From Polyangiales bacterium (GTDB lineage Bacteria; Myxococcota_A; Polyangia; Polyangiales; Polyangiaceae), in contig JBBRLQ010000028.1 of the NCBI GenBank assembly GCA_038231275.1, positions 32,001-96,000 on the forward strand: 64,000 bases of DNA, given 5' to 3'. Below are positions 30,983 to 53,653 of the stretch, piece after piece. Under the pieces are notes generated by a model that had not been told where the DNA came from, did no database searches, and was given only the letters and a program-made list of their open reading frames with translations. A program made the translations under genes and the position numbers. Numbering within the stretch: the first letter of the stretch is position 1; every line of letters starts with the position of its first letter.

Positions 30983-32292
30983 CGCGCCGCGCCGATGGCC
31001 GCGCGCAAGCGGCTCTCCGAGTCGATGAGGAACGTCGCGCCGGACACGACACGCTCCCCCGCGGCGAGGCCGGACTCGATGACGGTGTCGTCGCCGTGTG
31101 CGCCGCCGAGCGTGACCGCGCGCGGAACGTAGCGGCCCTCGGCTTCCACGACGAAGAGGTACGCCGCGGTCCCGGTGTCGACGATGGCGTCGCGCGGAAC
31201 GGTGATGACGTCGCGCGCGGCGGTCTCCAGCAGGGCGACGCCGTACTCCCCGGGGCGCAGCGCGTGACGAGCGTTCTTGACCTGCATGCGGACGCGGGTG
31301 GTGCGCGCCTCGGCGTCGAGGACGGGATAGACGAGATCGACGGTCGTGGCGACGGCGTCCTCTGCGCGGCCATTCGGCGTAAATTTGCCGGCGAGGCCGG
31401 TCTTCACGAGCTTCATGTCCCGCTGGAAGACATCGGCGACCACGTACACCCGCGACAGGTCGACGAGCTCGTAGAGCACCATCTCGGGCGTGACGTACGA
31501 GCCGAGGACGACGCCCTTCTTCGCCACGTAGCCCCCTTGCGGCGCGGTGACGGGGATGGCGCGCATGGCCTGGCCGGACGCGAGCACTTGGTCGACGTCC
31601 TTGGCCGCCATGCCGAGCAGCTCCAGCTTGCTGCGCGCACGGTCCGACGCGCGCGCGCCGGCGTCGCCCTCCCACGTGCGCGTGGCGAGGAGCTCGGCCT
31701 CGGCCTGGAAGATCTCGGGGCTGTAGAGGAGAAAGAGCGTCTGCCCGCGGCCGACCGTCACGCCGAGCTGCGCGGCGTCGATGCGCTCGACGAAGCCCGA
31801 CGCGCGGACGTGCACCTCGGCGACGGACTGATCCGCCGGCGCGATCGACGCGGTGACGCGGAGCGGCTCGCCGGACTTCTCGGCGCGGGCCAGCGCGGTG
31901 CGTACGCCGATCGCTTGAACGCGATCGAGCGGGAGGTCCACCGTCGTCGTGCCGGGAGGCAGCCCCGCCGCGTCTCCCTGCGCATCGGCGGCGCCTGCGT
32001 CCGCCGAGCCACCTGCGCGGGCCGACGTGATCGGCTCGAGCGCCATGTGGCAGATCGGGCACTCGCCGGGCTCGTCCGAGACGACCTGCGGGTGCATCGG
32101 ACATTGGTATTTCCAGACGTGCGCGTGCCCCGCCGCGCTGGAGGAAGGGTGCTGCGCCTGCGCGAGGGTGAGGAGGCTGCCTACGGCGAGGAGCGCGGCG
32201 AGCGCGAGGATGATCCATCGCACCACGGCCATCACGCGCACGCCTCGCGGCGGCGGCTCGGCGCCTTCGGGCATCGGATGCTCATCGGACAT
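30979..32292 (-). CDS. cusB: CusB-family RND adaptor with heavy-metal-binding domain
   Basis: YQCPMHPQV..PGECPICHMAL, LYSPE, FLIDSESRL. Confidence 0.9.
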   Translation of the reverse strand: MSDEHPMPEGAEPPPRGVRVMAVVRWIILALAALLAVGSLLTLAQAQHPSSSAAGHAHVWKYQCPMHPQVVSDEPGECPICHMALEPITSARAGGSADAGAADAQGDAAGLPPGTTTVDLPLDRVQAIGVRTALARAEKSGEPLRVTASIAPADQSVAEVHVRASGFVERIDAAQLGVTVGRGQTLFLLYSPEIFQAEAELLATRTWEGDAGARASDRARSKLELLGMAAKDVDQVLASGQAMRAIPVTAPQGGYVAKKGVVLGSYVTPEMVLYELVDLSRVYVVADVFQRDMKLVKTGLAGKFTPNGRAEDAVATTVDLVYPVLDAEARTTRVRMQVKNARHALRPGEYGVALLETAARDVITVPRDAIVDTGTAAYLFVVEAEGRYVPRAVTLGGAHGDDTVIESGLAAGERVVSGATFLIDSESRLRAAIGAAR

Positions 32293-33619
32293 GGTCGCCT
32301 CCGCTCGTCGTAGTGCTGGTGAGGGGGACGCGTGGAATCGCCAGGCCTGCCGCCGCGTCGAGATCGGCGAGCGCGTGGTCGAGGGTCGCGCGCGCGGCGA
32401 CGATCTCGAGATCGACGTCCACGACGCCGCGCTCCGCCACGAGGGCGACGGACATCTCGGTGCGCGCGCTCTCGTAGCCGGTCCACGCGACGTCGAAGGC
32501 GCGCTTCACCGCGGGCTTGGCGCGCGAGGCAAGGGCGTCGAGGCGCCGGGCCGCGCTGCGGGTGGCGGCCTCGGCGGTGGCCACGTCGACGTCGATGGCG
32601 AGTTGCTGCCCGAGCGACTCGTCGGTCGCCGCCTCCAGCTTCTCGCGTTCGACGTCACGACGCGCTCCGGCGGCACCCCAGAGCCACGGCAGCGTCATCT
32701 GTGCGTTGACGCCGTAGCCATGCGCCGGCATCGGCCCGACCGGCGCGAAGTACAGCGCCGCCACCTTGAACGACGGCCACGTCGCCTCGCGATCCGCCGC
32801 AGCGTGCTCGCGCGACTGCGCTTCGCGCGCCGCGTTAGCGCCACGAAGCTCGGGTCGCGTCGCGCGCGCTTTCGCGAGGAGCGTCGCGGCGTCCCACGCG
32901 GGGACCTCCGGGGCGCCCACCACCGGCGGGCCGAGCGGCGCCCCGAGATCGCGACCGAGGAGCGCGTTGATGCGCGCGCGCGCCGCCTGCTCGCGCGCCG
33001 CGTCGGTCTCCACGTCGGCATGAACGCGTGCGATCTCCGCCTCGAGCTGCGCGACCTCCACCAGAGACCCGCCCGCCGCCTGCCGCGCCTCGGCGACCTG
33101 GAGCATGCGCGCGTCGACGTCACGGTGCGCCAGGTGAATGGCGTGCCGGGCGGTCGCTTCTGCGTAGTCGGCGAAGACGTGCTCGGCGTCGCGCGTAACG
33201 AGGCGCGCCCGATCGTCGGCCATCGCCTCGCCCTCGCGTGAGAGCGCGACCTTCGCGGCCTCACGCTCTCCCCGCGCTCCCGGCGACGGAAATTCCTGTT
33301 CGACGCCGAACATCGCCATCTGCGCGTCGCCGATCGCGTACGGCCGCGCCAGCGGTACCTGCCAGACCTGCACCATCGCGCTCGGGGGCGGCAGGCGCGA
33401 CACGGCGTCCCCTTCGCGCGCCATCGCGCGTGCTCGCCCCTTGGCGGCACGGATCCCAGGGCTCCGCGCGACGGCGGCGCGCACGAGCGCGGGCCGTTCG
33501 ACTCCTGCGCCGAACGATCCATCGGCGGAGGGGCTCTCGGATGCGTGTAGAGTGCATGCGTACGCAGCGATGGCGCACGCGAGCGCGCCCGCGCGGCGCG
33601 CACGAAGGTTCGTGGACAT
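32282..33619 (-). CDS. TolC/CusC-family outer membrane factor
   Basis: EQEFPSPG, MTLPW, OEP helical repeats; operonic with cusBA. Confidence 0.85.
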   Translation of the reverse strand: MSTNLRARRAGALACAIAAYACTLHASESPSADGSFGAGVERPALVRAAVARSPGIRAAKGRARAMAREGDAVSRLPPPSAMVQVWQVPLARPYAIGDAQMAMFGVEQEFPSPGARGEREAAKVALSREGEAMADDRARLVTRDAEHVFADYAEATARHAIHLAHRDVDARMLQVAEARQAAGGSLVEVAQLEAEIARVHADVETDAAREQAARARINALLGRDLGAPLGPPVVGAPEVPAWDAATLLAKARATRPELRGANAAREAQSREHAAADREATWPSFKVAALYFAPVGPMPAHGYGVNAQMTLPWLWGAAGARRDVEREKLEAATDESLGQQLAIDVDVATAEAATRSAARRLDALASRAKPAVKRAFDVAWTGYESARTEMSVALVAERGVVDVDLEIVAARATLDHALADLDAAAGLAIPRVPLTSTTTSGGDHVR

Positions 33620-39468: not shown

Positions 39469-39993
39469 ATGACGAAGTACGCCCCGCCCGAAGACGCCCA
39501 CGACCACGCGCACTGGGACGCCGTCGAAGAAGCGACGGAGATGCTGCACGAGGAGCGCTTCCACGAGGCGCTGGTCTTCCTGCGCGACGTCATCAAGGCC
39601 GACGCGAAGAACCCGTACGCGTATTTTTTCCTGGGCGTCGCGCTCTTCGAGAGCGGCGAGCTCGAGGCGTCGCGTGACGCGTACCGCGCGGCCCTGGCGG
39701 TCGCTCCGGCGCACCTCGGCGCGCGCATCGCGCTCTCGCACGTGCTCCGTCAGCTCGGCGATCTGCGCGAGGCGATCAAAGAGGGCACGCAGGCGCTCAG
39801 CCACGCGCCCGGCGACGGTGACGCGCTCTACGCCGTCGGTATGGCGTACTTCGCGCGCGGCGACAACGCGGCCGCCCGAAAGTACCTGACCGCGTTCCTC
39901 GACGCGCGCCCGGAGTTCGAAATCGCCACCGAGGTGAAGGGCATGCTCGGCTCGATGGGCAACGAGCGCCAGGACGAGGACGAGTCGAACTGA
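39469..39993 (+). CDS. TPR-repeat protein
   Basis: AYFFLGVALF, ARIALSHVL, ALYAVGMAYF TPR pattern. Confidence 0.85.
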   Translation: MTKYAPPEDAHDHAHWDAVEEATEMLHEERFHEALVFLRDVIKADAKNPYAYFFLGVALFESGELEASRDAYRAALAVAPAHLGARIALSHVLRQLGDLREAIKEGTQALSHAPGDGDALYAVGMAYFARGDNAAARKYLTAFLDARPEFEIATEVKGMLGSMGNERQDEDESN

Positions 39994-40002
39994 AGCGTCG
40001 CG

Positions 40003-40050
40003 CTCGTAACTGGTCACTCGTAACGGATCACTCGTACCGGGTCACTCGTC
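40003..40050. repeat. Imperfect 14-bp tandem repeat (about 3.5 copies) between convergent genes
   Basis: CTCGTAACTGGTCA / CTCGTAACGGATCA / CTCGTACCGGGTCA / CTCGTC. Confidence 0.85.
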
Positions 40051-40464
40051 GCTGATCTTCGTCAAGAGGCGGAGCAGCTCCTGGCGTTCGCGCGTCGTGA
40101 GCCGCGAGAAGCTCGCCGCCTCGGTCGCCTCCAGCGCCGTCTCGATGGCGCGCCGCCGCTTGGTGTCGAACGGCGCCGGCTCCACGCGGACCGCGCGCCC
40201 GTCCTTCGGATCTTCGACGCGCCGGACGAGCCCGGCCTTGTGCATTCGATCGATCGCGCCGGTCAACGTCCCGCTGCTGAGCGACAGCACCCGTTGGAGC
40301 TCGCCGATCTTCAACGGCCCTTCGATCCACAAAATCAAGAGGATGTGGGCTTGCTCCGCCGAGAGCTCGAAGGGGAGAAGCGCCCGGCTGCTCGCGCGGT
40401 TCACCTGACGGAAGGCTCGCACCAGCGCGTAGCCGAGCGAGCTCTTGATCCGATCATCTTGCAT
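40042..40464 (-). CDS. MarR-family transcriptional regulator
   Basis: LSAEQ..IL, GTLTGAIDRMHKAGLVRR..DPKDGR. Confidence 0.92.
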   Translation of the reverse strand: MQDDRIKSSLGYALVRAFRQVNRASSRALLPFELSAEQAHILLILWIEGPLKIGELQRVLSLSSGTLTGAIDRMHKAGLVRRVEDPKDGRAVRVEPAPFDTKRRRAIETALEATEAASFSRLTTRERQELLRLLTKISDE

Positions 40465-40484
40465 ACGAGATATTTATCTCGTAT
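40463..40484. promoter_or_regulatory. Perfect inverted repeat, probable MarR operator
   Basis: ATACGAGATA-TT-TATCTCGTAT between divergent marR and Rieske starts. Confidence 0.75.
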
Positions 40485-40492
40485 ACGAACGA

Positions 40493-41644
40493 ATGTCCAT
40501 GAATCATCCCGCCCACCTCGCGCTCGTGAAGTCGCTGCTCCGGCGGGTCGAGGCGGTCACGGCTCCCGCGGTGCTCGTCGGGGAGGTGCCGGCGTGGCAC
40601 TACACGTCGCACGCGCGGTTCGAGGAGGAGCGCGCTGGGCTCTTCGCGCGCGTGCCCACGGTGGTCGCGCACGAGAGCGAGCTCGCGGAGGTCGGCGCGT
40701 GCATGACGGTCGACGTCGCCGGCGTTCCGCTCCTCGTCGTGCGCGGCGCGGATGGCCAGGTGCGCGCGTTCCGCAACGCCTGCCGTCATCGTTCCACCCG
40801 CCTCGTCACCCTCGACGATGCGCCGTGCCGAAAGAAGGCAATCGTGTGCCCGTACCACGGGTGGACCTACGATCTCGAAGGAGCGCGAATCCACGCGCCG
40901 CGCGAAGAGTCGTTCGGAGGCGCCGACGCCGCCCGCAAGGCGCTCGTTCCAGCGTTCGCGGCGGTGCGCCACGGCCTCGTGTGGGCCAGCCTCGTGCCGT
41001 TCGACGTCGCCGCGCACCTCTCCTCGATCGACGACGAGCTCGCGTCGATGGCGCCGCCTGGCGCGGTCCTCTACCGCCGCGTCACGCGCGAGGTGAAGGG
41101 CAACTGGAAGCTCATCGTCGACGCCTTCCTCGACGGCTACCACATCCGCCATTTGCACCGCGACACGGTCTACCGCTTCTTCGTCGATGGGCTGTCGCAG
41201 GCCGAGCCCGCAGGCGATCACATCCGCGCGGCGACCGGGCGGCGCACCCTCTTGGAGGCACGCGGGACGCGCCTCGAGGACGCCGATCTCCGTCTCCTGG
41301 CGACGCCGAGCTACGTCGTCTTTCCGAGCACGGTGCTCATCCTCCACCCCGACTACACCAGCGTCCTCACGATGACGCCGGAGGCCGCGGACCGAACGCG
41401 CTTCGTCCACATGATGCTGATCCCGCCAGGCTCACACACCGACGCCGAAGAGAAGCACTGGGCGAAGAGCTTCTCGCTCATCGACGAGGGGGTCTTCCTC
41501 CGCGAGGATCTGGCGACGGTCGAGGCCATGCAGCGAGGGCTCGCCGCGGGCGCCAACGACACGCTCCTCTTCGGCGACCTCGAGCAAGCGTCGCTGTGGT
41601 TCCACGAGAGCGTTGCGAAGACGCTCGCGTTAGCGCTCCGCTAG
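40493..41644 (+). CDS. Rieske non-heme iron oxygenase alpha subunit
   Basis: NACRHR and CPYHGW (2Fe-2S); NWK..DGYH.RHLH..ED (mononuclear Fe). Confidence 0.92.
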   Translation: MSMNHPAHLALVKSLLRRVEAVTAPAVLVGEVPAWHYTSHARFEEERAGLFARVPTVVAHESELAEVGACMTVDVAGVPLLVVRGADGQVRAFRNACRHRSTRLVTLDDAPCRKKAIVCPYHGWTYDLEGARIHAPREESFGGADAARKALVPAFAAVRHGLVWASLVPFDVAAHLSSIDDELASMAPPGAVLYRRVTREVKGNWKLIVDAFLDGYHIRHLHRDTVYRFFVDGLSQAEPAGDHIRAATGRRTLLEARGTRLEDADLRLLATPSYVVFPSTVLILHPDYTSVLTMTPEAADRTRFVHMMLIPPGSHTDAEEKHWAKSFSLIDEGVFLREDLATVEAMQRGLAAGANDTLLFGDLEQASLWFHESVAKTLALALR

Positions 41645-44224: not shown

Positions 44225-44233
44225 GTGCTAAGA

Positions 44234-45460
44234 ATGCCCCCTTCGAGGTCCGTCTTGCCGAAAAGTCGCCTGTCCGTCGTCGCCTTGCTCTCTGCCGCCG
44301 CCGTCGTGGCGGCTGCCGCGTGCGGTGGCTCCTCCTCCCACGATCTGATCGGTCCGGACGGCGACGCTGGCTCCAGCGGTACGTCCGGCGCGAGCGGGAC
44401 GAGCGGCACGTCCGGGACGAGTGGCACGAGCGGGACGAGCGGCACGAGCGGGACCAGCGGGACGAGCGGGACCAGCGGCACGAGCGGGTCGAGTGGATCG
44501 AGCGGATCGAGCGGATCGAGCGGCAGCTCCGGCTCCACCGGCACGCTCCCCGACGGCGGCGCGATCGCCTACACGTCGGCGGTGAAGATCATCGTCGAGC
44601 CGTCGGACAACGGCCAGGCGCTCCTCGATGCGATCAACGCCGCGAAGACGAGCGTGCACGTCACGATGTACCTGCTCACGTTCAACGGCCCGGTCTACAA
44701 GGCGCTCATCGCCGCCAAGAGCAAGGTCGAGGTGAAGGTCGTCCTCAACCAGAATTTCCCGGGCGGTCAAGGGAGCAACGTCTCCACCTACAACGGCCTC
44801 AAGGCCGCCGGGGTCAACGTCGTATGGGCGCCGTCGGTCTACACGTTCACCCACGAAAAATGCGTGATCCTCGACACCGCGACGGCTTGGATCATGACGA
44901 TGAACGCGACGGACTCGTCGGCGTCGCAGAACCGCGAGTACCTCGCCGTCGACACCGACGCCGACGACGTGAAGTACGCGGAGCAGATCTTCGAAGAAGA
45001 CTTCACGGGCGCCGCCGCCAACGTGAGCGGCAAGCTCGTCCTTGCGCCGATCAACGCCAAGGCCCGCATCTACGCGCTGCTCAAGTCGGCCACCACGAGC
45101 ATCGACCTCGAGGGCGAAGAGTTCAGCGACATTGATCTCACCAACATCATCGCCGCCAAGGCCGACGCCGGCGTCGCGGTGCGCGTGGTCCTCGCCGACA
45201 ACACGCCGACGCCGTCGCAGCAGACCTCCGTGACGACGCTGAAGGCGCACAAGATCACCGTCAAGTCGATGTCGAACCCGTACGTCCACGCCAAGGCGAT
45301 CGTCGTCGACGGCGTGCACGCCTACGTCGGCTCGGAGAACTTCACGAGCGGCTCGATGACCGGCAACCGCGAGCTCGGCGTGCTGTTCGACACGGCCGCG
45401 GAGGTCGCAAAGGTCACGACTACGATCGCGGCGGATTTCGCCGCAGGAACGGCGCTCTAA
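44234..45460 (+). CDS. Phospholipase D-superfamily lipoprotein with two HKD motifs
   Basis: Lipobox [12 protein letters not shown] and [15 protein letters not shown] motifs. Confidence 0.9.
44375..44540 (+). repeat. 9-bp intragenic tandem repeat encoding an (SGT/SGS)n linker
   Basis: Repeated AGCGGGACG/AGCGGCACG/AGCGGATCG units. Confidence 0.9.
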
Positions 45461-45497: not shown

Positions 45498-47009
45498 ATG
45501 TCCGACGAAATCACGCAAGCGCGGACCGAAGCGCGGCTCGCGAAGGGATTCCGAGACGTCGAAGCGGCTGAAATTCGCCGACACGACGCGATGATCGCCA
45601 CGATCCGTTCGGTCTACGAGCGCTACGGCTTCGAGCCGCTCGAGACGCCGGCCTTCGAGTACACCGACGCGCTCGGAAAATTTCTGCCCGATCAGGATCG
45701 CCCGAACGCCGGCGTCTTCTCCGTGCAAGACGACGACGAGGCGTGGATGAGCCTGCGTTACGATCTCACGGCGCCGCTCGCGAGGTACGTTGCGCAGAAC
45801 TACGAACGGCTCCCCAAGCCGTATCGCCGCTACGCGACCGGCCCGGTGTTTCGGAACGAGAAACCGGGCCCCAGCCGTTTCCGTCAGTTCGTTCAGTTCG
45901 ACGCGGACACCGTCGGGACCGAGAACCTCGCGGCCGACGCCGAGCTCTGCATGCTCGCCGCCGACACGTTCGAGGCGCTGGGAATTCGGCGCGGCGACTA
46001 CATCGTAAAGCTGAACCACCGGAAGCTCCTCGACGGCGTCCTCGAAGCGATCGGCGTCACCGCAGCGTCCGACGCCGACGGCAGCAAGCGACTCGCAGTG
46101 CTTCGCGCGATCGACAAGCTCGACCGACTCGGCAACGCCGGTGTGCTTGCGCTCTTGGGGCCTGGCAGAAAAGACGAGTCGGGCGACTTCACGAAAGGCG
46201 CCGGGCTCGACGCCGCCGCGACGGACGTGGTCATGCGCTTCGTCGGCGCGACTGCCGCAAACGAGGAGACGGCCCTGTCCACTGTCGAAGCGCTCGTGGC
46301 GTCGTCCGAAATCGGGCGCGCGGCGGTCGCCGATCTCCGGCAGCTCGACGCGCTCCTCAAGGGGGCAGGGTACGGCGCGGACCGCATTCGCTTCGACTCG
46401 ACGGTCGTGCGCGGGCTCGAGTACTACACGGGGCCCGTCTTCGAGGCGGAGCTCACCTTCGAGATCAAAGGGGACGACGGAGCGCCCGTTCGCTTCGGGG
46501 CCGTCGGCGGAGGCGGGCGCTACGACGATCTCGTCGCGCGATTTCTCGGCCAGAAGGTACCCGCCACAGGCTTCTCGGTGGGCGTGTCGCGTCTTCAGGC
46601 GGCGCTTGCCCATCTGAAACAAGACGACGCCGGCGCGACGCTCGGTCCAGTGGTCGTCCTCGTCATGGACCGCGCGGAGCTGCCGCGGTACCAGGCGATC
46701 GTGCAGACCCTCCGGCACGCGGGCATTCGCGCGGAGATGTACCTAGGCACGTCGGGAATGAAGCCGCAGATGAAGTACGCCGACCGGCGCAATAGCCCGT
46801 GCGTCGTCATCCAGGGATCGAACGAGCGCGCGAACGGCGAGATTCAGCTGAAGGATCTCATCGAGGGGGCCAAAGCCGCCGCGTCGATCAAGGACAACAA
46901 GGCGTGGAAAGAAGCACGCCCCGCCCAAGTGACGATCAAAGAAGCGGACCTCGTCGACGAAGTCCGCCGTCTGCTCGCGCGGCACGACCCTCCAGCCGAG
47001 CATCCTTGA
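45498..47009 (+). CDS. hisS: Histidine--tRNA ligase, alphaproteobacterial-type
   Basis: GF.D motif 1, [29 protein letters not shown] motif 2, [26 protein letters not shown] motif 3, anticodon domain QMKYADRR. Confidence 0.96.
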
Positions 47010-47030
47010 ACGATGAACGTCGAAGCGACT

Positions 47031-47107
47031 TGGTACCAGCTCTCGGGGTCGAACCGAGGACCTCTAGATCCACAATCTAGCGCTCTAACCAACTGAGCTA
47101 AGCCGGC
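47031..47107 (-). tRNA. tRNA-His (GUG), non-canonical: no encoded G-1, A73, G1:U72, encoded CCA
   Basis: GCCGGCT TA GCTC AGTTGGTTA GAGC G CTAGA TTGTGGA TCTAG AGGTC CTCGG TTCGACC CCGAG AGCTGGT A CCA folds into a full cloverleaf. Confidence 0.97.
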
Positions 47108-47151
47108 GTACAGAAACGGTTCCTCTCAGAAACCGCGACAATTCGCTTCCT

Positions 47152-47180
47152 AGCATAAGACCGACGAGCGGTCGACGCAA
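47152..47180 (-). promoter_or_regulatory. Putative sigma-70 promoter of tRNA-His
   Basis: Minus strand TTGCGT-N17-TATGCT, about 45 nt upstream of the tRNA 5' end. Confidence 0.6.
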
Positions 47181-47230
47181 TCTGTCGCTAGGCCGATCTG
47201 CCCGGGACGGAGGGGCGTAGACGCTGCAAG

Positions 47231-47836
47231 GTGGCAGTCCCGACCGGCGCGCAGAAGGACGAGGACAAGGACGACAAGGATCCCTGCGCGACCTGCGACG
47301 CCGACAAGAAGGCCAAGAAGAAAAAGGAGCGAGACGCCAAGGTCGCCAAGATGACGGCCAAGCTCGATCCCCAGCTGAAGGCGGACGTCGAGAAGTCGCC
47401 GGAGCTGCAGAAGGATCTCGCCGAGCTCAATGACAAGGGCTGGACCGTGCGCGAGGATCCGAGCTTGAAGCCGCCGACGGCAGGCGTCACGAACTCCGCG
47501 ACCAAAGAGATCACGCTCGCCTCTGGAAGCGACACCGGCACGCTCGCCCACGAAGTGCAGCACGCCCTGAACAGCGAATCGGGTCAGTATCAGCCGCCGC
47601 AGATCGGCTCGATGAGCCGAAGCGACTTCGTGAGCGCGGCGACGCAAGCGTCGGTGCAGGACGAGCGGTCGGCCTTCGGGAATCAGAACCTCGTGAGGAG
47701 CGAGATCTTGGCCAACGGCGGCCGCGACATCGGCCCCGTCCGGAGCTTCGGGTCGCTCTACCAGGACGCGTACACGAGCTACTACACGAACGCCTACGGC
47801 AAGTACTACGATACGTATGCGCCGGGAGGGAGGTGA
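47231..47836 (+). CDS. HExxH zincin-like protein, putative toxin C-terminal domain
   Basis: TLAHEVQHA followed by DE..A and RSEILANGGRDIG; start uncertain. Confidence 0.65.
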   Translation: MAVPTGAQKDEDKDDKDPCATCDADKKAKKKKERDAKVAKMTAKLDPQLKADVEKSPELQKDLAELNDKGWTVREDPSLKPPTAGVTNSATKEITLASGSDTGTLAHEVQHALNSESGQYQPPQIGSMSRSDFVSAATQASVQDERSAFGNQNLVRSEILANGGRDIGPVRSFGSLYQDAYTSYYTNAYGKYYDTYAPGGR

Positions 47837-48288
47837 CGCCGATGAGCCACTGGATCACCTCCCTCGTCGAGCACGTCGTACGGCAGCGGATGCCCCCAAA
47901 GAGCGGAGGCCTCTGGACCGGGCTCGGCGTTCCCGTCGTTCGCACCGAGACGAGCGGAGACATGGAGTACTTCCAGGGCGCCCTCGACGCCGGCCCCTTC
48001 ACGAAAGCGGAGCTCCGGGTGAACCGCGCGACCGGCTTCGCGCTGCTCGTCCTCGCGCCACGCGACGACGCGCCCATCCGAGAAGCGGATCTCGCGCTCG
48101 ACGCTTACGGGCCCAGTCGGGTCGAGATCACGCCGGACATTTCCCCCGAGGGGGCGACCACGCTCGTCTTCGAAGTGAACGGGGTCACGGTCCGCTTCCA
48201 GCTGACGACCGACGGTCGTGTGCTCCGCGTCATGAGCTTCACGTGGCCGGCGCGCGCGCTCCATTCGGTTCCGCACGATCGCCACTGA
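47833..48288 (+). CDS. Hypothetical protein, candidate immunity protein
   Basis: GTGA coupling to the upstream putative toxin; size and position. Confidence 0.55.
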   Translation: MTPMSHWITSLVEHVVRQRMPPKSGGLWTGLGVPVVRTETSGDMEYFQGALDAGPFTKAELRVNRATGFALLVLAPRDDAPIREADLALDAYGPSRVEITPDISPEGATTLVFEVNGVTVRFQLTTDGRVLRVMSFTWPARALHSVPHDRH

Positions 48289-48336
48289 CCGAAGAATCGA
48301 CCGCGTCCGTTGTCGGGCGTGGTGCGTAGCTTCGAC

Positions 48337-48930
48337 ATGGATCATCGGTTCCCCGTCTCGAGCACCCCGCCTTGGGCCCGCCATCCTCGTGGCGGCCTGA
48401 CGTTCGCCCCTCCGAGCGGGTGGCTCGATCGGACGGTCGTCGCGTACACGAGCCCGGCCGAGTCCACGAAGCCGCTCGCGCCGAGCATCGTGATTACGCG
48501 CGAGCCGGTTCGTCCCGGCGACACGCTGCGACTTCACGGGAACCGGCAGCTGATGGAGCTCGAGGCGCAGCTCGAGCACTTCGACCTCGTGGAGTCGCGC
48601 GAGGCCGAGCTCGGTGGTTTCCCGGCCCTCTTCTATCGCTACACCTGGGTGAGCCACGTCGGGGCGCTCGAGCAGACGATGACCTTGGCGCTCTCGATGC
48701 ACGACGGCGATTCGGTGATGACTACGGTGACGACGACCGCCGCGCGCGGGGACGCACGTGACGCCGACGCCGCGTTCGCAGGCATGCTCGCGACGATGCG
48801 CTTCGACGATCCGGGCTCGCCCGAGCCCGCGCGGATCTCGACCATCGTGCCGGCACCGGCGGCCGTCGCCTCGATGGCGGACCTTCCCAGTTTTCCCATG
48901 CCCGGCGTCGGCCGCGGCGCCCGTCGCTGA
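48337..48930 (+). CDS. DcrB-related (DUF1795/Eag-like) T6SS effector chaperone
   Basis: PSGWLDRTVV..SIVITRE..QL..L..F.L pattern; immediately upstream of a PAAR effector. Confidence 0.75.
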   Translation: MDHRFPVSSTPPWARHPRGGLTFAPPSGWLDRTVVAYTSPAESTKPLAPSIVITREPVRPGDTLRLHGNRQLMELEAQLEHFDLVESREAELGGFPALFYRYTWVSHVGALEQTMTLALSMHDGDSVMTTVTTTAARGDARDADAAFAGMLATMRFDDPGSPEPARISTIVPAPAAVASMADLPSFPMPGVGRGARR

Positions 48931-48939
48931 GGCCCGGCC

Positions 48940-50595
48940 GTGAGCGTCACCCTCGCCGCCCGCATCGGCGACCAAGTCGGGAGCCATTCGGGCGCGCTCG
49001 CCGGGCTCTTGACGGGGATCGCCGTCGGCCTCGCGATCGGGGTCGCGATCGCCGTGACCATCGGCACGGGCGGCCTCGCCGGTCCCGCGCTCATCGGCGC
49101 GTACATGGCGATGGCCGGCGGCGCCGTGAGCCTGGGCGCCGTCGGGGGCATGGCCGGCGCAAAGTTTGGCGGCACGTTCAAGAAGGCCAGCCCATGCGGC
49201 GCCATCTCGACGGGCTCATCGAACGTCTTCATCGAGGGCGAGAGGGCCGCGCGCCGGGGCGTCGACACCGCCAAGCACGGCGCGAAGAAGATCGCGCAAG
49301 GGAGCTCCGCCGTCTTCGTGAACGGGTACATGCTCGCGCGCGACCAGGACGGCGTGGAGTGCGGCGGCAAGATCGTCAGCCACTGCATCAACGTCTGGAT
49401 CGGCGGCGGAAGGGGCGGCGAAGAGGTCAGCGAGCTCCCCGGATGGGCGAAATGGCTCCCGGCGATCGCCTTGGCGGGCGGCGCGGTCGCGTTGGTCGGA
49501 GGCGTACTCGCGGCAGGTGTCGTCGCGACCGGCGTCATGTTCGGCGCGTCGATGGTGGGCGGCGCCGTCGGCAAGGCGGTGCTGGGCGCTGCGGGCCGCG
49601 GCATCGACGCGCTCGGCGGACGAACCGACGGGCGATGGGCGAGCTTACTGGGAACGGTCGGCGAGGTGGGCGGGGGCCTCTTCGGCGGCGTGAAGAGCGC
49701 ACGCGTCGCGACGCGCGCGGCCGAGTGGGCCGGCGATCTCTTCCCCGCGATGAACCAGCCGCTCCTCACGCGAGGCGCGGGCGTGCCGAGCCCGGCGGAT
49801 CTCTTGACCAGACCGATCGCCGAGCTTTCGCCGAGAGAGCTCGCGGAGAGCCCCGCCGAGCAGGCTCGCCTCTTTCGCGGCGCCCAGGACGCGCGCGATC
49901 GCATGCAGGCGGTGGCGGACGGGGTTCGCGAGAAGCTCGGCCTGCCCGAGACCACGCCGTCTGGCCGGCCCACCGCGGAGTCGATGCTCAAGCGCGACGG
50001 CGAGGCGGAGTTCTTGCGTGGCGTCGAGGAGAAGTGCGCGCGGAAGGGCTATGAGCGCATCGGACAGATGGACGACATGGTCCGCGGACGATTCAACGCG
50101 CCGGACCGCGCCGCGGTCGAGCAGATCGTGGGCGAGCTCCGCGCGTCGGGCTACGAGGTGAAGGAGGTGGTCGGTCCGCGCGTGAGCGATGGCGTCGAAA
50201 GCTACTCGCGCTACCACGTCGTCCTCCGCGACGCGGAGACCGGCCTCACCCACGAATGGCAAGTCGGCACCGACGCGACCACCAGCCTCTACGAGGACCA
50301 GGGCATTCGCATCCCCGACTCCCTCGCCGCCGCGCGCGACGCCGCCGGCAAGCACTTCAACGACGATTTGCACGACGTTTATTACGATCTGTTCAAGTCG
50401 GTGAACCAGCAGAACCCGGACATGGGGCAGCGTTACGGGCTGGGCGACTTCATCGGCCAGGTCGAGGGGGCTGCGCCGCGCGCCGGCCAGGGCGAGGCCG
50501 TCGACGTTGCGGGAATGCACGAGCGCGCCTCGGACATCCTGGCGCGCATGGACGCGGAGCAAGGTTCACAATGGATCCTCGGGTTCTTCCATTGA
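48940..50595 (+). CDS. prePAAR-TM-PAAR-TM effector with a C-terminal RelA/SpoT synthetase-like toxin domain
   Basis: AARIGDQVGSH; GSSNVFIEGERAAR, GSSAVFVNG, CGGKI..NVWIGG; C-terminal K..EK..DDMVRGR..YSRYH..EWQVGT. Confidence 0.8.
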   Translation: MSVTLAARIGDQVGSHSGALAGLLTGIAVGLAIGVAIAVTIGTGGLAGPALIGAYMAMAGGAVSLGAVGGMAGAKFGGTFKKASPCGAISTGSSNVFIEGERAARRGVDTAKHGAKKIAQGSSAVFVNGYMLARDQDGVECGGKIVSHCINVWIGGGRGGEEVSELPGWAKWLPAIALAGGAVALVGGVLAAGVVATGVMFGASMVGGAVGKAVLGAAGRGIDALGGRTDGRWASLLGTVGEVGGGLFGGVKSARVATRAAEWAGDLFPAMNQPLLTRGAGVPSPADLLTRPIAELSPRELAESPAEQARLFRGAQDARDRMQAVADGVREKLGLPETTPSGRPTAESMLKRDGEAEFLRGVEEKCARKGYERIGQMDDMVRGRFNAPDRAAVEQIVGELRASGYEVKEVVGPRVSDGVESYSRYHVVLRDAETGLTHEWQVGTDATTSLYEDQGIRIPDSLAAARDAAGKHFNDDLHDVYYDLFKSVNQQNPDMGQRYGLGDFIGQVEGAAPRAGQGEAVDVAGMHERASDILARMDAEQGSQWILGFFH

Positions 50596-50639
50596 GTGCA
50601 GCGAAGCGCAGCGGAGCGAAACGACTCCTGGCGGAGAGG

Positions 50640-50894
50640 ATGGGCACGAAGATGAGCTACCGAGTCTTGCAGAACGACCGCACCGCGGCCCTCGAGCGTG
50701 ATTGCCCCGAATGCGGAACGAAGATGAAGGGAACGGGAGACCTCTACTGGAACAACGCCGGCTGGTTCGTGGCGTTCTACTGCCCGCAGCACCGCGAGGT
50801 CTTTCCGACGTGGGCGCCGGAGTATGCGCATCTCGTCGACGAGCTCACGCGCGGCGTCGACCCGCAGACGCTCCCTACGAGGGGCGGCGGCTGA
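50640..50894 (+). CDS. Small Zn-ribbon protein, candidate immunity protein
   Basis: GGAGAGG RBS; CPEC..YCPQH. Confidence 0.6.
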   Translation: MGTKMSYRVLQNDRTAALERDCPECGTKMKGTGDLYWNNAGWFVAFYCPQHREVFPTWAPEYAHLVDELTRGVDPQTLPTRGGG

Positions 50895-50907
50895 AGACGA
50901 CGCTCCT

Positions 50908-52251
50908 TTACCGCGGCGGCGGCGGGGGAGGCAATTGGCCGACGCAGACGCCGACTTCCAGGAGGACGTAGAGGAGCGCCTTCTCTTGCGCGAGGAGGCC
51001 TGACGCGCTGTCGCCCTCGCAGTGGTAGCTGCTGAAGAGGACGCGGCCGCACTTCTGCTCGAAGCTGACGGTGGCGGGGAGGATTTGTCCGCCGATGTCG
51101 GAGGTCATCCAGACCTTGGGCGTGATCGTGACCGGCTTGCCGTCGGGATCGACGCCGGGCTGCGCGTGGACGCTGGCGATGCGCGACCAGCTCGCCTTGA
51201 GCTCGATGTCGTTCTCGCCGATCGCCTTCATCCAGCTGGAGAGGCCCGGGTCTTCGGCTTTGCCCGGCGTGTCTTCGGCACCCGCGCGGCATGCGGTGCC
51301 GAGGCCGTCCGACGTCTTGGTCAGCGGGTTCATCACGTAGTCGTACCAAGTGATAAACCCCGGCCACGTCTGGCGAACGGCCTCGTAGGAGTAGTCGGTG
51401 ACGTAGAGCTTGCCGCCGCTCTGCACGTAGGTGTCGAGCGCCTTCTTCTCGCCGTCGGTCGGCGTGCCGCACACGTTGCCTTGATCGGTCTGCTGGTAGC
51501 CCATCGCTGCGCAGGGCATGAGCGTGATGTGGTAGCCGGCGAGCTCGGCGGCGCTCTGCATGAGATCCATTCCGCTCTTTCCGGTCTTGATGCCGGGCCC
51601 GCTGCTCGGAAGCGGAGGAGGAGGATCGCCGTAGCGGTAGAAGTCCTGGATGCCGAGCTTGTTCATCGAGACTTCGATGTGATCGAAGCCGCCGAGGACC
51701 AGCGCGATCTTGGGGATCGTGTCGCCGGCGGGCGCGTCGGTCTTGCCGGGCAATCGCGTGAAGGTCGCCTGCACGGGCTGATCGCCGGTCGTGACGTCGA
51801 GCTGTCTGACGCGCCGGAACTGCCCTTTTTGAACGACGAGGTACTGCTTGCCGGTCGTGTACGCGCCGAGATCGAACGTGCCGTCCGCCTTCGAATACGC
51901 GTACGGCTGGAGCGCCGTGAGGTGGACGCACGTGTCGCAATACGCGCCCGGGGGGATCGTCTCGGGCGGATCGTTCGTGAGGTAGACGAGCGCACTACTG
52001 ATCGGGATCGTGCCCTCGGGGGCGACGACCTTGCCGTGGAGCCAGCCCACTGCGTTCGGGCGCGGCGTCGCGCTGGCGTCGTGCGACGTGTCGAACGTGC
52101 CGCCCTCGCCGCCGCTGCTCCCGCTGCTGCCCGGCCCGCCGCTTCCGGTGGCGTTCGGATCGAACCCCTTCTTCGACGACCCGCACGCGACGAGCGACGC
52201 AGCGGTGAGGAGTCCGAGCGCGGCCATCGACACGATCACGTTTCTCAGCAT
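50908..52251 (-). CDS. Lipoprotein with carboxypeptidase-regulatory-like domain
   Basis: Lipobox LVAC, GKVVAPEG..PISSALVY, QKGQFRR, GGKLYVTDYSY, CGRVLFSSYH. Confidence 0.8.
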   Translation of the reverse strand: MLRNVIVSMAALGLLTAASLVACGSSKKGFDPNATGSGGPGSSGSSGGEGGTFDTSHDASATPRPNAVGWLHGKVVAPEGTIPISSALVYLTNDPPETIPPGAYCDTCVHLTALQPYAYSKADGTFDLGAYTTGKQYLVVQKGQFRRVRQLDVTTGDQPVQATFTRLPGKTDAPAGDTIPKIALVLGGFDHIEVSMNKLGIQDFYRYGDPPPPLPSSGPGIKTGKSGMDLMQSAAELAGYHITLMPCAAMGYQQTDQGNVCGTPTDGEKKALDTYVQSGGKLYVTDYSYEAVRQTWPGFITWYDYVMNPLTKTSDGLGTACRAGAEDTPGKAEDPGLSSWMKAIGENDIELKASWSRIASVHAQPGVDPDGKPVTITPKVWMTSDIGGQILPATVSFEQKCGRVLFSSYHCEGDSASGLLAQEKALLYVLLEVGVCVGQLPPPPPPR

Positions 52252-52403
52252 GGGCCCCGATATGCACCCCGGATCTCGTGCGCGCCAAGCCCGTCCGTCA
52301 CGCGCGACGTGCGAGAGACGAGGTGTCGCGCGAGGGAGACACGCGCGTCCGCTCTCGACGGATGCAATCCACTCGCGACGGACGGAATCGGAATCGGAGT
52401 CGG

Positions 52404-53444
52404 TTACCCGAGCTTGTGTCCGGCCTTCGCCGCCCACCGTGCGGCCTTGGCGAGATCGGGCGCGTCGACGTCGCGCGGGATGTCCTCTGCGTCGCCGAGC
52501 ACGAGGCCGCGCAGCGCGGAGCCGAGGCCCGACTCGAGCGACGGCAGATCGTAGCCGCCCTCGAGCACGAGCAGCGCGCGCCCTTTCGCGTGCTTGTCGG
52601 CAATCGCGCCGAGCGCGCGCGCCATCCATCCGAACGCGTCGTCGCTCACGTCCATCTGCGCGAGCGGATCGCGCTCCGCCGGATCGAAGCCCGCGCTGAT
52701 CAGCACGAGCTCCGGCGCGAACTCGTCGAGCACCGGCAGGAGCACTCGCTCGAACGCGCCGCGGTAAATCGCGTCGCCGCCTCCGGCCGACAGCGGCACG
52801 TTCACCGTCGCGCCGCGCCCGTCGCCTTCGCCGATCTCGTTCACCGCGCCGCTGCCCGGATAGAACGGGTACTGGTGCGTCGACGCGTAGAGGACGGCCG
52901 GGTCGGAGTAGAACATCTCCTGCGTCCCGTTGCCGTGATGGACGTCCCAGTCGATCACGGCGACCCGTGAGATGCCGCGTGCGCGCGCGTGGGCGGCGGC
53001 GATCGCGACGTTGTTGAGCAGACAGAACCCCATAGCCTGTCCCGGACGCGCGTGGTGCCCGGGTGGTCGCACCAGCGCGAGCCCTCTCGTCGCGCGCCCC
53101 TCGAGGAGCGCGTCGACGAGCGAGATGACGCCGCCGGCCGCGAGCCGCGCCGCCGCCACGCTCCCGGGGACGACGTACGTGTCCGGGTCGAGGTAGGACT
53201 CCTGACCCCGCAGCGCCTCGAGCTGCGTCGTGTACGCCGCGTCGTGCACCCGCGCGATCTCGTCGGCCGTCGCCTCGCGCGCTGGGACCCGCTGCCACGC
53301 CACCTTTGGCTCGAGCGCCGCCGCCGCCGCGCGCGCCGCCACGAGCCGCTCCGGCCGCTCCGGGTGGTACGCGACCGGCGCGTGAAGATCGAAACGCGCG
53401 TCATCCAAGAGGAGCGCGGCGCTTTTCTCGTGCGGTTCGGGCAT
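52404..53444 (-). CDS. Histone deacetylase-family (Zn-dependent amidohydrolase) protein
   Basis: HPERPERL, RPPGHHA, GFCLLNN, DWDVHHGNGTQ, SAGFD, LEGGY. Confidence 0.95.
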   Translation of the reverse strand: MPEPHEKSAALLLDDARFDLHAPVAYHPERPERLVAARAAAAALEPKVAWQRVPAREATADEIARVHDAAYTTQLEALRGQESYLDPDTYVVPGSVAAARLAAGGVISLVDALLEGRATRGLALVRPPGHHARPGQAMGFCLLNNVAIAAAHARARGISRVAVIDWDVHHGNGTQEMFYSDPAVLYASTHQYPFYPGSGAVNEIGEGDGRGATVNVPLSAGGGDAIYRGAFERVLLPVLDEFAPELVLISAGFDPAERDPLAQMDVSDDAFGWMARALGAIADKHAKGRALLVLEGGYDLPSLESGLGSALRGLVLGDAEDIPRDVDAPDLAKAARWAAKAGHKLG

Positions 53445-53611
53445 GTCGAGGAAATTCAGACCAAAAAAACCAGAAGAAAGGCCAAAAAATGGCGCGGCGC
53501 GAAAATGAACGGACCCCGGCGAAGGGTTGCCGCATGGCGAGCACGGATGATAGCGTCTTTGCCGATCCGTGGCGTGGCTCCAAAGAGCGCGAACACGGAG
53601 CCCGTGCAAGT

Positions 53612-53627
53612 GGGCACCGTGCCTGCT
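53612..53627 (+). promoter_or_regulatory. Putative sigma-54 promoter
   Basis: GGGCACCGTGCCTGCT (GG-N10-GC), followed by a GGGAGG element and GTG 53654. Confidence 0.6.
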
Positions 53628-53653
53628 TGCCACCGCTGGGGAGGCGGGGAGCC

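Follow-up and report, generated by a model that had tools for sequence, protein, structure and literature searches.

Where does the histidine-charging system of a soil myxobacterium come from when its gene for histidyl-tRNA synthetase (HisRS), hisS, and the adjoining tRNA-His gene both look alphaproteobacterial, and does the cell possess any other? The window analysed here, a 64,000-nucleotide (nt) stretch of contig JBBRLQ010000028.1 from a Polyangiales bacterium (assembly GCA_038231275.1), carries these two genes as a convergent pair. A preliminary description of the window had taken them for a HisRS of alphaproteobacterial type and a tRNA-His lacking the extra G at position -1 (G-1), acquired together as a unit that could replace or back up the native histidine system. 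The reading favoured here, to which we assign a probability of roughly 0.85, is that the pair is the cell's entire histidine-charging system, that it originated in a Hyphomicrobium-like bacterium and replaced the native system, and that it has moved laterally within the family. The genome under study is labelled G000, G001 and G002 belong to the same genus, and C1, C4, C28 and C29 are contigs of G000.

Sequence features of the enzyme and its tRNA

The pair and the sequences that belong to it are as follows:

45498..47009, plus strand: hisS, encoding a HisRS of the G-1-independent (alphaproteobacterial) type, 503 aa, ATG start (open reading frame, translation, TIGR00442)
47010..47030, no strand: spacer of 21 bp from the hisS stop to the 3' end of the convergent tRNA gene (sequence)
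47031..47107, minus strand: tRNA-His(GUG) without an encoded G-1 (ARAGORN; Rfam RF00005, 66.7 bits)
47108..47183, minus strand: tRNA upstream region, presumed promoter (collinear with G001, loosely alignable in other carriers)

The hisS end at 47009 and the 21-bp distance to the convergent tRNA, as given in the preliminary description, are exact, and the peptide strings quoted there occur in the open reading frame. The enzyme scores 373.3 bits against TIGR00442, the hisS family (cut-off 286.75 bits), and is full length, with PF13393 covering residues 17-366 and PF03129 residues 385-466; against TIGR00443 (HisZ) it reaches 173.2 bits, which is under the 271.65 cut-off and places it outside HisZ. 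The motif-2 loop reads KPGP, where three canonical family members have RPQR (FRAERPQRGRYRQF), and its Gly replaces the canonical motif-2 Gln, the reader of G-1:C73. This Gly-for-Gln exchange is given as a marker of the G-1-less type by Amrine et al. (2014, PMC3937112; this and the other sources cited by PMC number are drawn on from the parts of their texts that were available). An insert of ~23 aa in the anticodon-binding domain is common to the window enzyme and Hyphomicrobium enzymes, and is not found in canonical relatives. Yuan et al. (2010, PMC3064791) describe an insert in this domain of the alphaproteobacterial HisRS, and we infer that the two are the same. A search of the PDB returned no close structure (best match 6nhi, 190 bits), and human cytoplasmic HisRS outscored the E. 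coli enzyme.

The tRNA-His(gtg), the sole ARAGORN tRNA call within the window (calls were scored with Rfam RF00005, gathering score 29), has C rather than G at position -1 by direct reading of the sequence. Its acceptor stem GCCGGCU/AGCUGGU gives G1:U72 and G4:U69, and the molecule has an A73 discriminator, an encoded CCA, C3:G70 and G37. The D loop, AGUUGGUUA, is 9 nt long and includes an additional U (U20a), compared with the 8-nt loops AGUUGGUA or AGUCGGUA of 11 canonical relatives. The sequence is identical in G001, G002 and two carriers from other genera (G070 and G421), and the base at -1 is C or T in the five other family carriers. For the alphaproteobacterial tRNA-His that lacks G-1, Yuan et al. 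list A73, G1-U72, pairing at C3 and a D loop of 9 nt that contains U20a. Thus, the encoded G-1, C73 and motif-2 Gln of the canonical bacterial G-1:C73 system are all absent from the window pair, and the description of its tRNA as G-1-less, with C at -1, A73 and G1:U72, is borne out.

The spacer between hisS and tRNA-His varies among carriers (68 bp in G070, ~75 bp in G857, ~1 kb in G421). A scan for regulatory signals returned no sigma-70-like sites, so a promoter role for 47108..47183 is inferred only, and three terminator-like sites against 2.0 expected, which is no signal. A search of public RNA runs listed none that contains the region.

By analogy with known systems, a tRNA precursor with C-1 and A73 would be cut by RNase P at +1 like other tRNAs, because these bases cannot form the G-1:C73 pair that retains the extra G. 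As expected from the Caulobacter enzyme, HisRS would recognize its tRNA by the GUG anticodon, U72 and A73 and not by G-1, and would neither charge nor need canonical tRNA-His.

Donor lineage and loss of the native genes

Every one of the 80 best-matching named genomic relatives of the enzyme is alphaproteobacterial, headed by Hyphomicrobium/Hyphomicrobiaceae sequences at 64-72% identity, compared with 31-36% to the HisRS of its own family. In an IQ-TREE phylogeny (43 rows, 504 columns, LG+C20+F+G4 PMSF; support as ultrafast bootstrap/SH-aLRT), five Polyangiaceae HisRS form one clade (99/97), which groups with the metagenomic sequence P0013 (100/99) and is next joined by Hyphomicrobium sp. GL140 and the metagenomic P0012 and P0015 (98/95), all within an enclosing Hyphomicrobiaceae clade (99/97). 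Two FastTree trees, of 132 and 115 rows, place the Polyangiaceae HisRS likewise. The enzyme therefore nests in Hyphomicrobiaceae and not among canonical Myxococcota HisRS, in agreement with the type first assigned to it. In a metagenome scan with the HisRS, none of the matches listed exceeded 69% identity.

The tRNA leads to the same lineage. The closest named relatives of the pair are Hyphomicrobium sp. isolate GL140_1_metabat_265 (HisRS 72%, locus L144) and Hyphomicrobium sp. 1Nfss2.1. The tRNA-His of the GL140 genome is identical to that of the window at 73/77 positions (95%), with the GCCGGCU acceptor strand common to both and the four differences forming two compensatory pairs; that of 1Nfss2.1 is 94% identical. 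The tRNA-His genes of the same family are ~80% identical over 55 nt. Between Hyphomicrobium and the myxobacteria, no similarity of the tRNA flanks was found beyond the tRNA itself. Comparison of both molecules shows them to derive, as far as their sequences can tell, from a Hyphomicrobium-like alphaproteobacterium. Because the tRNA traces to the same Hyphomicrobium lineage as the enzyme, their acquisition together, as the preliminary description had supposed, is further supported.

The surroundings are of a different kind. The contig also encodes SecD, 21 kb from the pair, and the named sequences most like this SecD come from Polyangiaceae metagenome-assembled genomes (MAGs; 69-70%), Labilithrix luteola (68%) and Pendulispora (67-68%). 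The neighbouring genes are myxobacterium-like, encoding Ser/Thr kinases, a sigma-54 activator, SecDF and AcrB. By its SecD relatives, the host is a Polyangiaceae-like myxobacterium rather than an alphaproteobacterium, as had been proposed.

In this host, the pair appears to stand alone. Five matches to TIGR00442 were found in the G000 genome and only one, the window hisS, exceeds the cut-off; the next is a HisZ-like gene on C4 (157 bits). A canonical tRNA-His query against the genome returned no canonical copy, its only matches being to the G-1-less gene (80% identity over 55 nt) and, over short lengths, to other tRNAs. A search of the same genome for a Thg1 homologue found none. The preliminary description had proposed looking for a second canonical hisS, a G-1 tRNA-His and Thg1-like genes, and none of the three turned up. 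ARAGORN called 86 tRNAs in the genome, two of them labelled His. The second His call (C1:499951-500043), 93 nt including a long extra arm, matches nothing in Rfam at E≤1 and sits in a frame without a stop over the 801 bases examined. This false positive is of a kind that could mislead automatic counts.

The former site of the native hisS is preserved. In 7/7 relatives, canonical hisS is flanked on one side by a conserved gene for a secreted protein and on the other by ruvX. The orthologues of these neighbours in G000 (C29:30298-31755 and 32010-33412) are ~255 bp apart, and between them C29:31765-31869 encodes 34-35 residues matching the canonical HisRS N-terminus (LRAVKGMNDILPGE...; 56-66% identity, E 1e-7 to 1e-10 in a small search). 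The relic occurs at the same place in G001 and G002, so the deletion of hisS predates their split. It lies on the minus strand of locus L317 (1965-2069) and runs in frame into the signal peptide of the downstream secreted-protein gene, where it probably keeps the old hisS promoter to drive that gene.

The former site of the native tRNA-His is the one that the foreign tRNA now occupies. Two host genes flank the pair:

44225..45460, plus strand: PLD-like lipoprotein gene, left-flank host gene (Pfam PLDc_2)
52404..53633, minus strand: histone-deacetylase-family gene (HDAC), right-flank host gene (Pfam Hist_deacetyl)

The genes flanking canonical tRNA-His in 7/8 relatives map to this region of C28, and an orthologue of the HDAC gene is among them in 5/8 (L063, L067, L068, L071 and L076). 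In one of these, G022 (L068), the canonical tRNA-His lies directly between the HDAC and PLD orthologues, oriented as in the window, and for this reason the PLD gene marks the native tRNA-His locus. Since the relatives' tRNA-His locus maps here, the foreign tRNA occupies the native site, with hisS inserted between the tRNA and the PLD gene.

The loss can also be followed in a second genus. G028 has canonical hisS and tRNA-His intact; in its congener G421, which carries the foreign pair, ~230 nt are missing at the orthologous tRNA site and two hisS relic pieces remain (residues ~10-62 and ~98-145), with boundaries that differ from those in the G000 genus. A search for a hisS relic in a third carrier, G070, found none. 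As judged from these remnants, the native system is lost independently at least twice, because G421 and G028 differ within one genus and the relic boundaries differ from those of the G000 genus. Of the two roles first offered for the pair, replacement of the native system is therefore upheld by the hisS relic and by the lack of canonical genes, and that of a back-up falls away. The selective advantages suggested with it (protection from HisRS inhibitors, tRNA-targeting toxins or phage) found no backing in this analysis.

Segments of the window that differ between congeners lie near the pair. G001 is an independent congeneric assembly, collinear with window positions 35071-60869 apart from two G000-specific segments, 47184-52404 and ~39962-41638. 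In G001, the alignment block ends at 47183 and the HDAC gene follows directly after the tRNA upstream region. The first segment, 5.2 kb just upstream of tRNA-His, contains two open reading frames without Pfam match (47231-47836 and 47833-48288), a DcrB-like open reading frame (48310-48930) and a gene for a prePAAR/PAAR-domain protein (48940-50595), and has the look of a toxin/immunity-type island, specific to this strain, next to the tRNA. The second segment (39962-41638), missing from the region in G001, encodes a MarR-family regulator and a Rieske ring-hydroxylating oxygenase.

Lateral spread, linkage and competing explanations

In a survey of 61 genomes (G000 itself and others of its genus, family and order), the enzyme was found at 93-100% identity only in G000, G001 and G002; the other 15 genomes matching at E≤1e-20 were 31-40% identical, and 55/61 genomes contain at least one hisS over the cut-off. 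ARAGORN calls on the 30 loci with the best DNA matches gave the identical tRNA adjoining hisS in the three genus members and, among 27 loci from other genomes, 11 tRNA-His and 16 other tRNAs. All 11 tRNA-His from other genera are canonical (g at -1, G1:C72, C73, 8-nt D loop). A family-wide scan (383 genomes from 89 genera, E≤1e-90, four candidates scored per genome) found matches in at least seven genomes, at least six of them with 85-100% HisRS identity (G000, G001, G002, G857, G070 and G421, in 4/89 genera). The hisS/tRNA-His pair was thus present in 6/383 family genomes, so it is not the vertically inherited norm of the lineage, an outcome against which the preliminary description had weighed its proposal. 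The convergent adjacent arrangement is found in 6/6 family carriers.

The DNA common to G000 and the carriers G070, G421 and G857 is confined to window positions 45524-47113, at 79-82% identity, with BLAST matches ending at 47113 (G070), 47067 (G421) and 47107 (G857), a few bases from the tRNA 5' end. The flanks of the pair in these three genomes are ordinary metabolic genes that lie on other G000 contigs or have no homologue there, and the pair is found in four different flanking contexts in all. Amino acid identities of SecD and HisRS between genomes are as follows:

G000 and G001: SecD 92.6%, HisRS 94.8%
G000 and G070: SecD 69.6%, HisRS 86.2%
G000 and G421: SecD 65.8%, HisRS 85.0%
G070 and G421: SecD 65.4%, HisRS 94.6%
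G421 and G028 (same genus): SecD 89.1%, HisRS 31.7%

Canonical HisRS across 15 family genera has a median identity of 58.6% (range 50.8-76.0%). Because HisRS is far more alike than SecD between carrier genera, and one genus contains both states, the pair has spread laterally within the family.

The mechanism proposed for this history, in keeping with the favoured reading, is one in which enzyme and tRNA would have entered Polyangiaceae from a Hyphomicrobium-like donor and travelled as a convergent pair of ~1.6 kb. After arrival, the pair and the resident G-1/C73 system would have coexisted, as they could if, in keeping with the Caulobacter work, there is little or no cross-charging between the two. 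One system would then have become dispensable, and the native hisS and tRNA-His would have been deleted in these lineages, leaving the pair at the native tRNA-His locus in the G000 genus and elsewhere in other genera.

The family contains further HisRS variety. Loci L011-L056, from the same family and order, show one family holding three kinds of HisRS: a canonical enzyme of ~430 aa (TIGR00442 ~440-490 bits); a longer enzyme, ~36% identical to that of the window (TIGR00442 ~280-410 bits), which in G026 and G027 goes with a canonical G-1/C73 tRNA-His; and the G-1-less type. The seventh family match, G363 (41% identity; L174), has a second, unrelated pair of the G-1-less type, its tRNA-His (A73, G1:U72, T at -1) lying directly upstream of hisS on the same strand.

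Beyond the family, 13 genomes of a 401-genome Myxococcota sample match at E≤1e-90, ten of them not of the Hyphomicrobium type and 41-56% identical. These ten deep-branching carriers represent seven families, and each has that gene as its sole hisS over the cut-off. A tRNA-His lies directly upstream of hisS in 7/10, and none lies within ±8 kb in 3/10. The tRNA-His of G076, G063, G363 and G125 has A73 and G1:U72 and lacks G-1, and that of G444 has g at -1 and U73. A mixed tRNA-His (g at -1, A73, G1:C72) occurs in G159 and G169 (L172 and L173), from another Myxococcota family. In the FastTree analysis, the deep Myxococcota enzymes branch below a clade (support 98) made up of 82/83 sampled alphaproteobacterial sequences, the Polyangiaceae clade and seven metagenomic sequences; in the IQ-TREE analysis, the alphaproteobacterial, Polyangiaceae and seven metagenomic sequences exclude the deep enzymes (91/92). 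The G125 HisRS (L176:1504-3057, minus strand) has Deltaproteobacteria MAGs as its nearest named relatives (67%), followed by MAGs of Saprospiraceae, Bacteroidota, Ignavibacteria and Omnitrophota (52-57%). An origin of the system in Myxococcota was considered and rejected, as the sampling comprised Myxococcota and Alphaproteobacteria and relatives of the G125 type occur in other phyla. Because only these two taxa were covered, no direction of transfer can be read from the deep branches. The idea that the G-1-less identity set is horizontally mobile, an ‘identity swap’ that has entered unrelated bacteria on many occasions with tRNA and hisS linked, is tentative, and we lean against it.

The linkage of the two genes is common in Myxococcota and rare in the donor group. 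A tRNA-His was found near hisS in 1/80 named alphaproteobacterial loci (±3 kb) and in 4/30 and 3/20 loci of two sets sampled across the class Alphaproteobacteria (±1.5 kb), a total of 8/130. Metagenomic loci that encode this type of enzyme gave 0/80 (up to ±5 kb, with many contigs short). Among Myxococcota carriers, linkage occurs in 13/16, a count over related lineages rather than independent events. All eight linked loci of Alphaproteobacteria have the tRNA gene preceding hisS in the same orientation; in the small alphaproteobacterial genomes G722 and G564 (L342 and L343) the order is tRNA-Phe, tRNA-His, hisS in tandem. Next to the pair in G421, a ~100-nt element just upstream of tRNA-His (L191:3658-3764) recurs at six or more other sites of the congeneric G028 (76-86% identity), making it a dispersed short repeat that borders the pair. 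A tRNA-targeting integrative island was tried as the vehicle and rejected, as no integrase was found in the flanking open reading frames and the whole tRNA is foreign, not just its 3' part.

Several observations weigh against the favoured reading. The convergent arrangement occurs in 0/130 alphaproteobacterial loci, and ~554 kb separates hisS from tRNA-His in 1Nfss2.1, which is the closest of the named donor relatives that have a complete chromosome. The two genes may have been brought together at the native tRNA-His locus of the G000 lineage, with the pair spreading from that site. The flanking open reading frames of G000, G070, G421 and G857 contain no integrase or transposase domains, and no flanking repeat turned up, no dedicated repeat search having been made. 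The nearest sisters of the Polyangiaceae enzymes, P0013, P0012 and P0015, are metagenomic sequences without taxonomic assignment. The GC content at third codon positions is only slightly lower in hisS (0.825) than in neighbouring genes (0.85-0.94), too small a difference for composition to serve as independent support for transfer. The G000 assembly (9.28 Mb in 164 contigs, 3.3% estimated contamination) is only 94% complete, and the carrier counts are lower bounds because the large genome scans scored only 3-4 candidates per genome.

The alternative that survives best, improbable in our view, is that of two separate transfers from Hyphomicrobium-like donors, the genes becoming neighbours later and the linked pair spreading thereafter; for example, hisS may have landed by an already replaced tRNA-His at the native locus. 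The distance between the genes in 1Nfss2.1 and the lack of convergence in the 130 alphaproteobacterial loci would suit such a history, as would the tRNA lying exactly at the native tRNA-His locus in the G000 genus. However, given the orthogonality reported in the available text of PMC3064791, either gene alone should be useless or harmful, and both trace to the narrow GL140 lineage and are adjacent in 6/6 carriers.

Very improbable is an auxiliary second system, directed for instance against HisRS inhibitors or tRNA-targeting toxins, in a cell whose native genes are missing only from an incomplete assembly. Such a system has in its favour the 94% completeness and 164 contigs of the assembly, the PAAR-type toxin island adjoining the tRNA, and the coexistence of orthogonal pairs that is possible in principle (PMC3064791). 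It is opposed by the native loci themselves, since both are assembled, a relic of 35 codons is all that is left at the hisS locus, and the tRNA locus is occupied by the foreign tRNA, in G001 and G002 as in G000. The PAAR island is missing from G001, and 10/10 other Myxococcota carriers have one hisS only.

The last two alternatives are hardly credible. An alphaproteobacterial contaminant, binned or mis-assembled into G000, would fit the fragmented assembly, its 3.3% contamination, and the best-matching public run, whose assembly-graph contigs break within the tRNA at 47078/47079; however, host genes lie on both sides of the pair on one contig, and the collinearity with G001 over 35071-60869 spans both junctions of the pair, so that the chimera considered in the preliminary description is not found. 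Contigs of the public run X1 (0.96 of words) bridge the PLD/hisS and hisS/tRNA junctions, although their tiling is not independent support because X1 may be the source sample, and the same pair occurs in five other genomes, in host contexts, with native genes missing or reduced to relics. An ancestral, vertically inherited pair in Polyangiaceae, with the canonical system a later arrival in most genera, draws on the deep-branching G-1-less-type pairs of other Myxococcota families, and is contradicted by a clade nested within Hyphomicrobium at 70-77% identity, by its presence in only 6/383 family genomes, by canonical hisS relics at the conserved locus in carriers, and by HisRS being far more alike than SecD.

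Known systems and biological meaning

Synthetases are known to undergo orthologous replacement by horizontal transfer, in which an essential gene is displaced and the resident tRNA kept. In the pylT-pylS cassette, a synthetase travels with its own tRNA and adds a new amino acid. The window case differs from ordinary synthetase replacement in that the tRNA was exchanged too, as it had to be because the recognition rules differ, and from the pyrrolysine cassette, which replaces no pair.

Among known systems, the window pair most resembles the alphaproteobacterial ‘RRCH’ pair of C. crescentus, every named sequence feature of which is present, with the enzyme nesting within that clade. By contrast with the RRCH pair, the host here is a myxobacterium, the genes are adjacent and convergent, and a canonical system has been displaced, leaving a visible relic. 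A second likeness is to the candidate phyla radiation (CPR) bacteria, for which Mukai et al. (2017, PMC5370408) describe tRNA-Trp(A73)/TrpRS-A operons and an archaeal-type TyrRS/tRNA-Tyr identity. There too, in the account available, an acquired synthetase is linked to a tRNA with a foreign identity element; the foreign TrpRS operon exists beside a bacterial-type TrpRS and tRNA-Trp in at least the cited genome, whereas the window pair fully replaces the native one. Unlike the CPR case, the window pair is bacterial in origin, and the amino acid whose rule it alters within Bacteria is a standard one.

The accessible text of PMC3937112 treats the loss of G-1 from tRNA-His as a unique, once-arisen trait of one alphaproteobacterial clade, and mentions Wang et al. 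as weighing co-transfer into SAR11. Giegé & Eriani (2023, PMC9976931), in the part available, give the trait only for some Alphaproteobacteria and some protists. A search of the full-text literature, supplements aside, found no G-1-less tRNA-His or HisRS of this type among bacteria outside Alphaproteobacteria, Myxococcota included. As molecules, enzyme and tRNA belong to a known type and are unexceptional; the novelty lies in their co-transfer across phyla, the repeated displacement of a native system with relics left behind, and the mobility of the pair in the family. If the deep Myxococcota pairs are truly G-1-independent, the change of rule would be older or far wider, and its alphaproteobacterial origin would be open.

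On the reading favoured here, a tRNA identity rule and its reader can cross phyla together and take over an essential function completely. tRNA-His traits are consequently unsafe as taxonomic markers, and the ~1.6-kb pair would, by analogy, be a naturally portable orthogonal synthetase/tRNA unit. The replacement leaves datable scars, in the form of a hisS relic, an emptied tRNA locus and a genus with both states, so that successive steps in the replacement of one tRNA identity system by another can be observed directly in nature. These lineages also provide a natural setting in which to test whether orthogonality allows a neutral intermediate with two systems.

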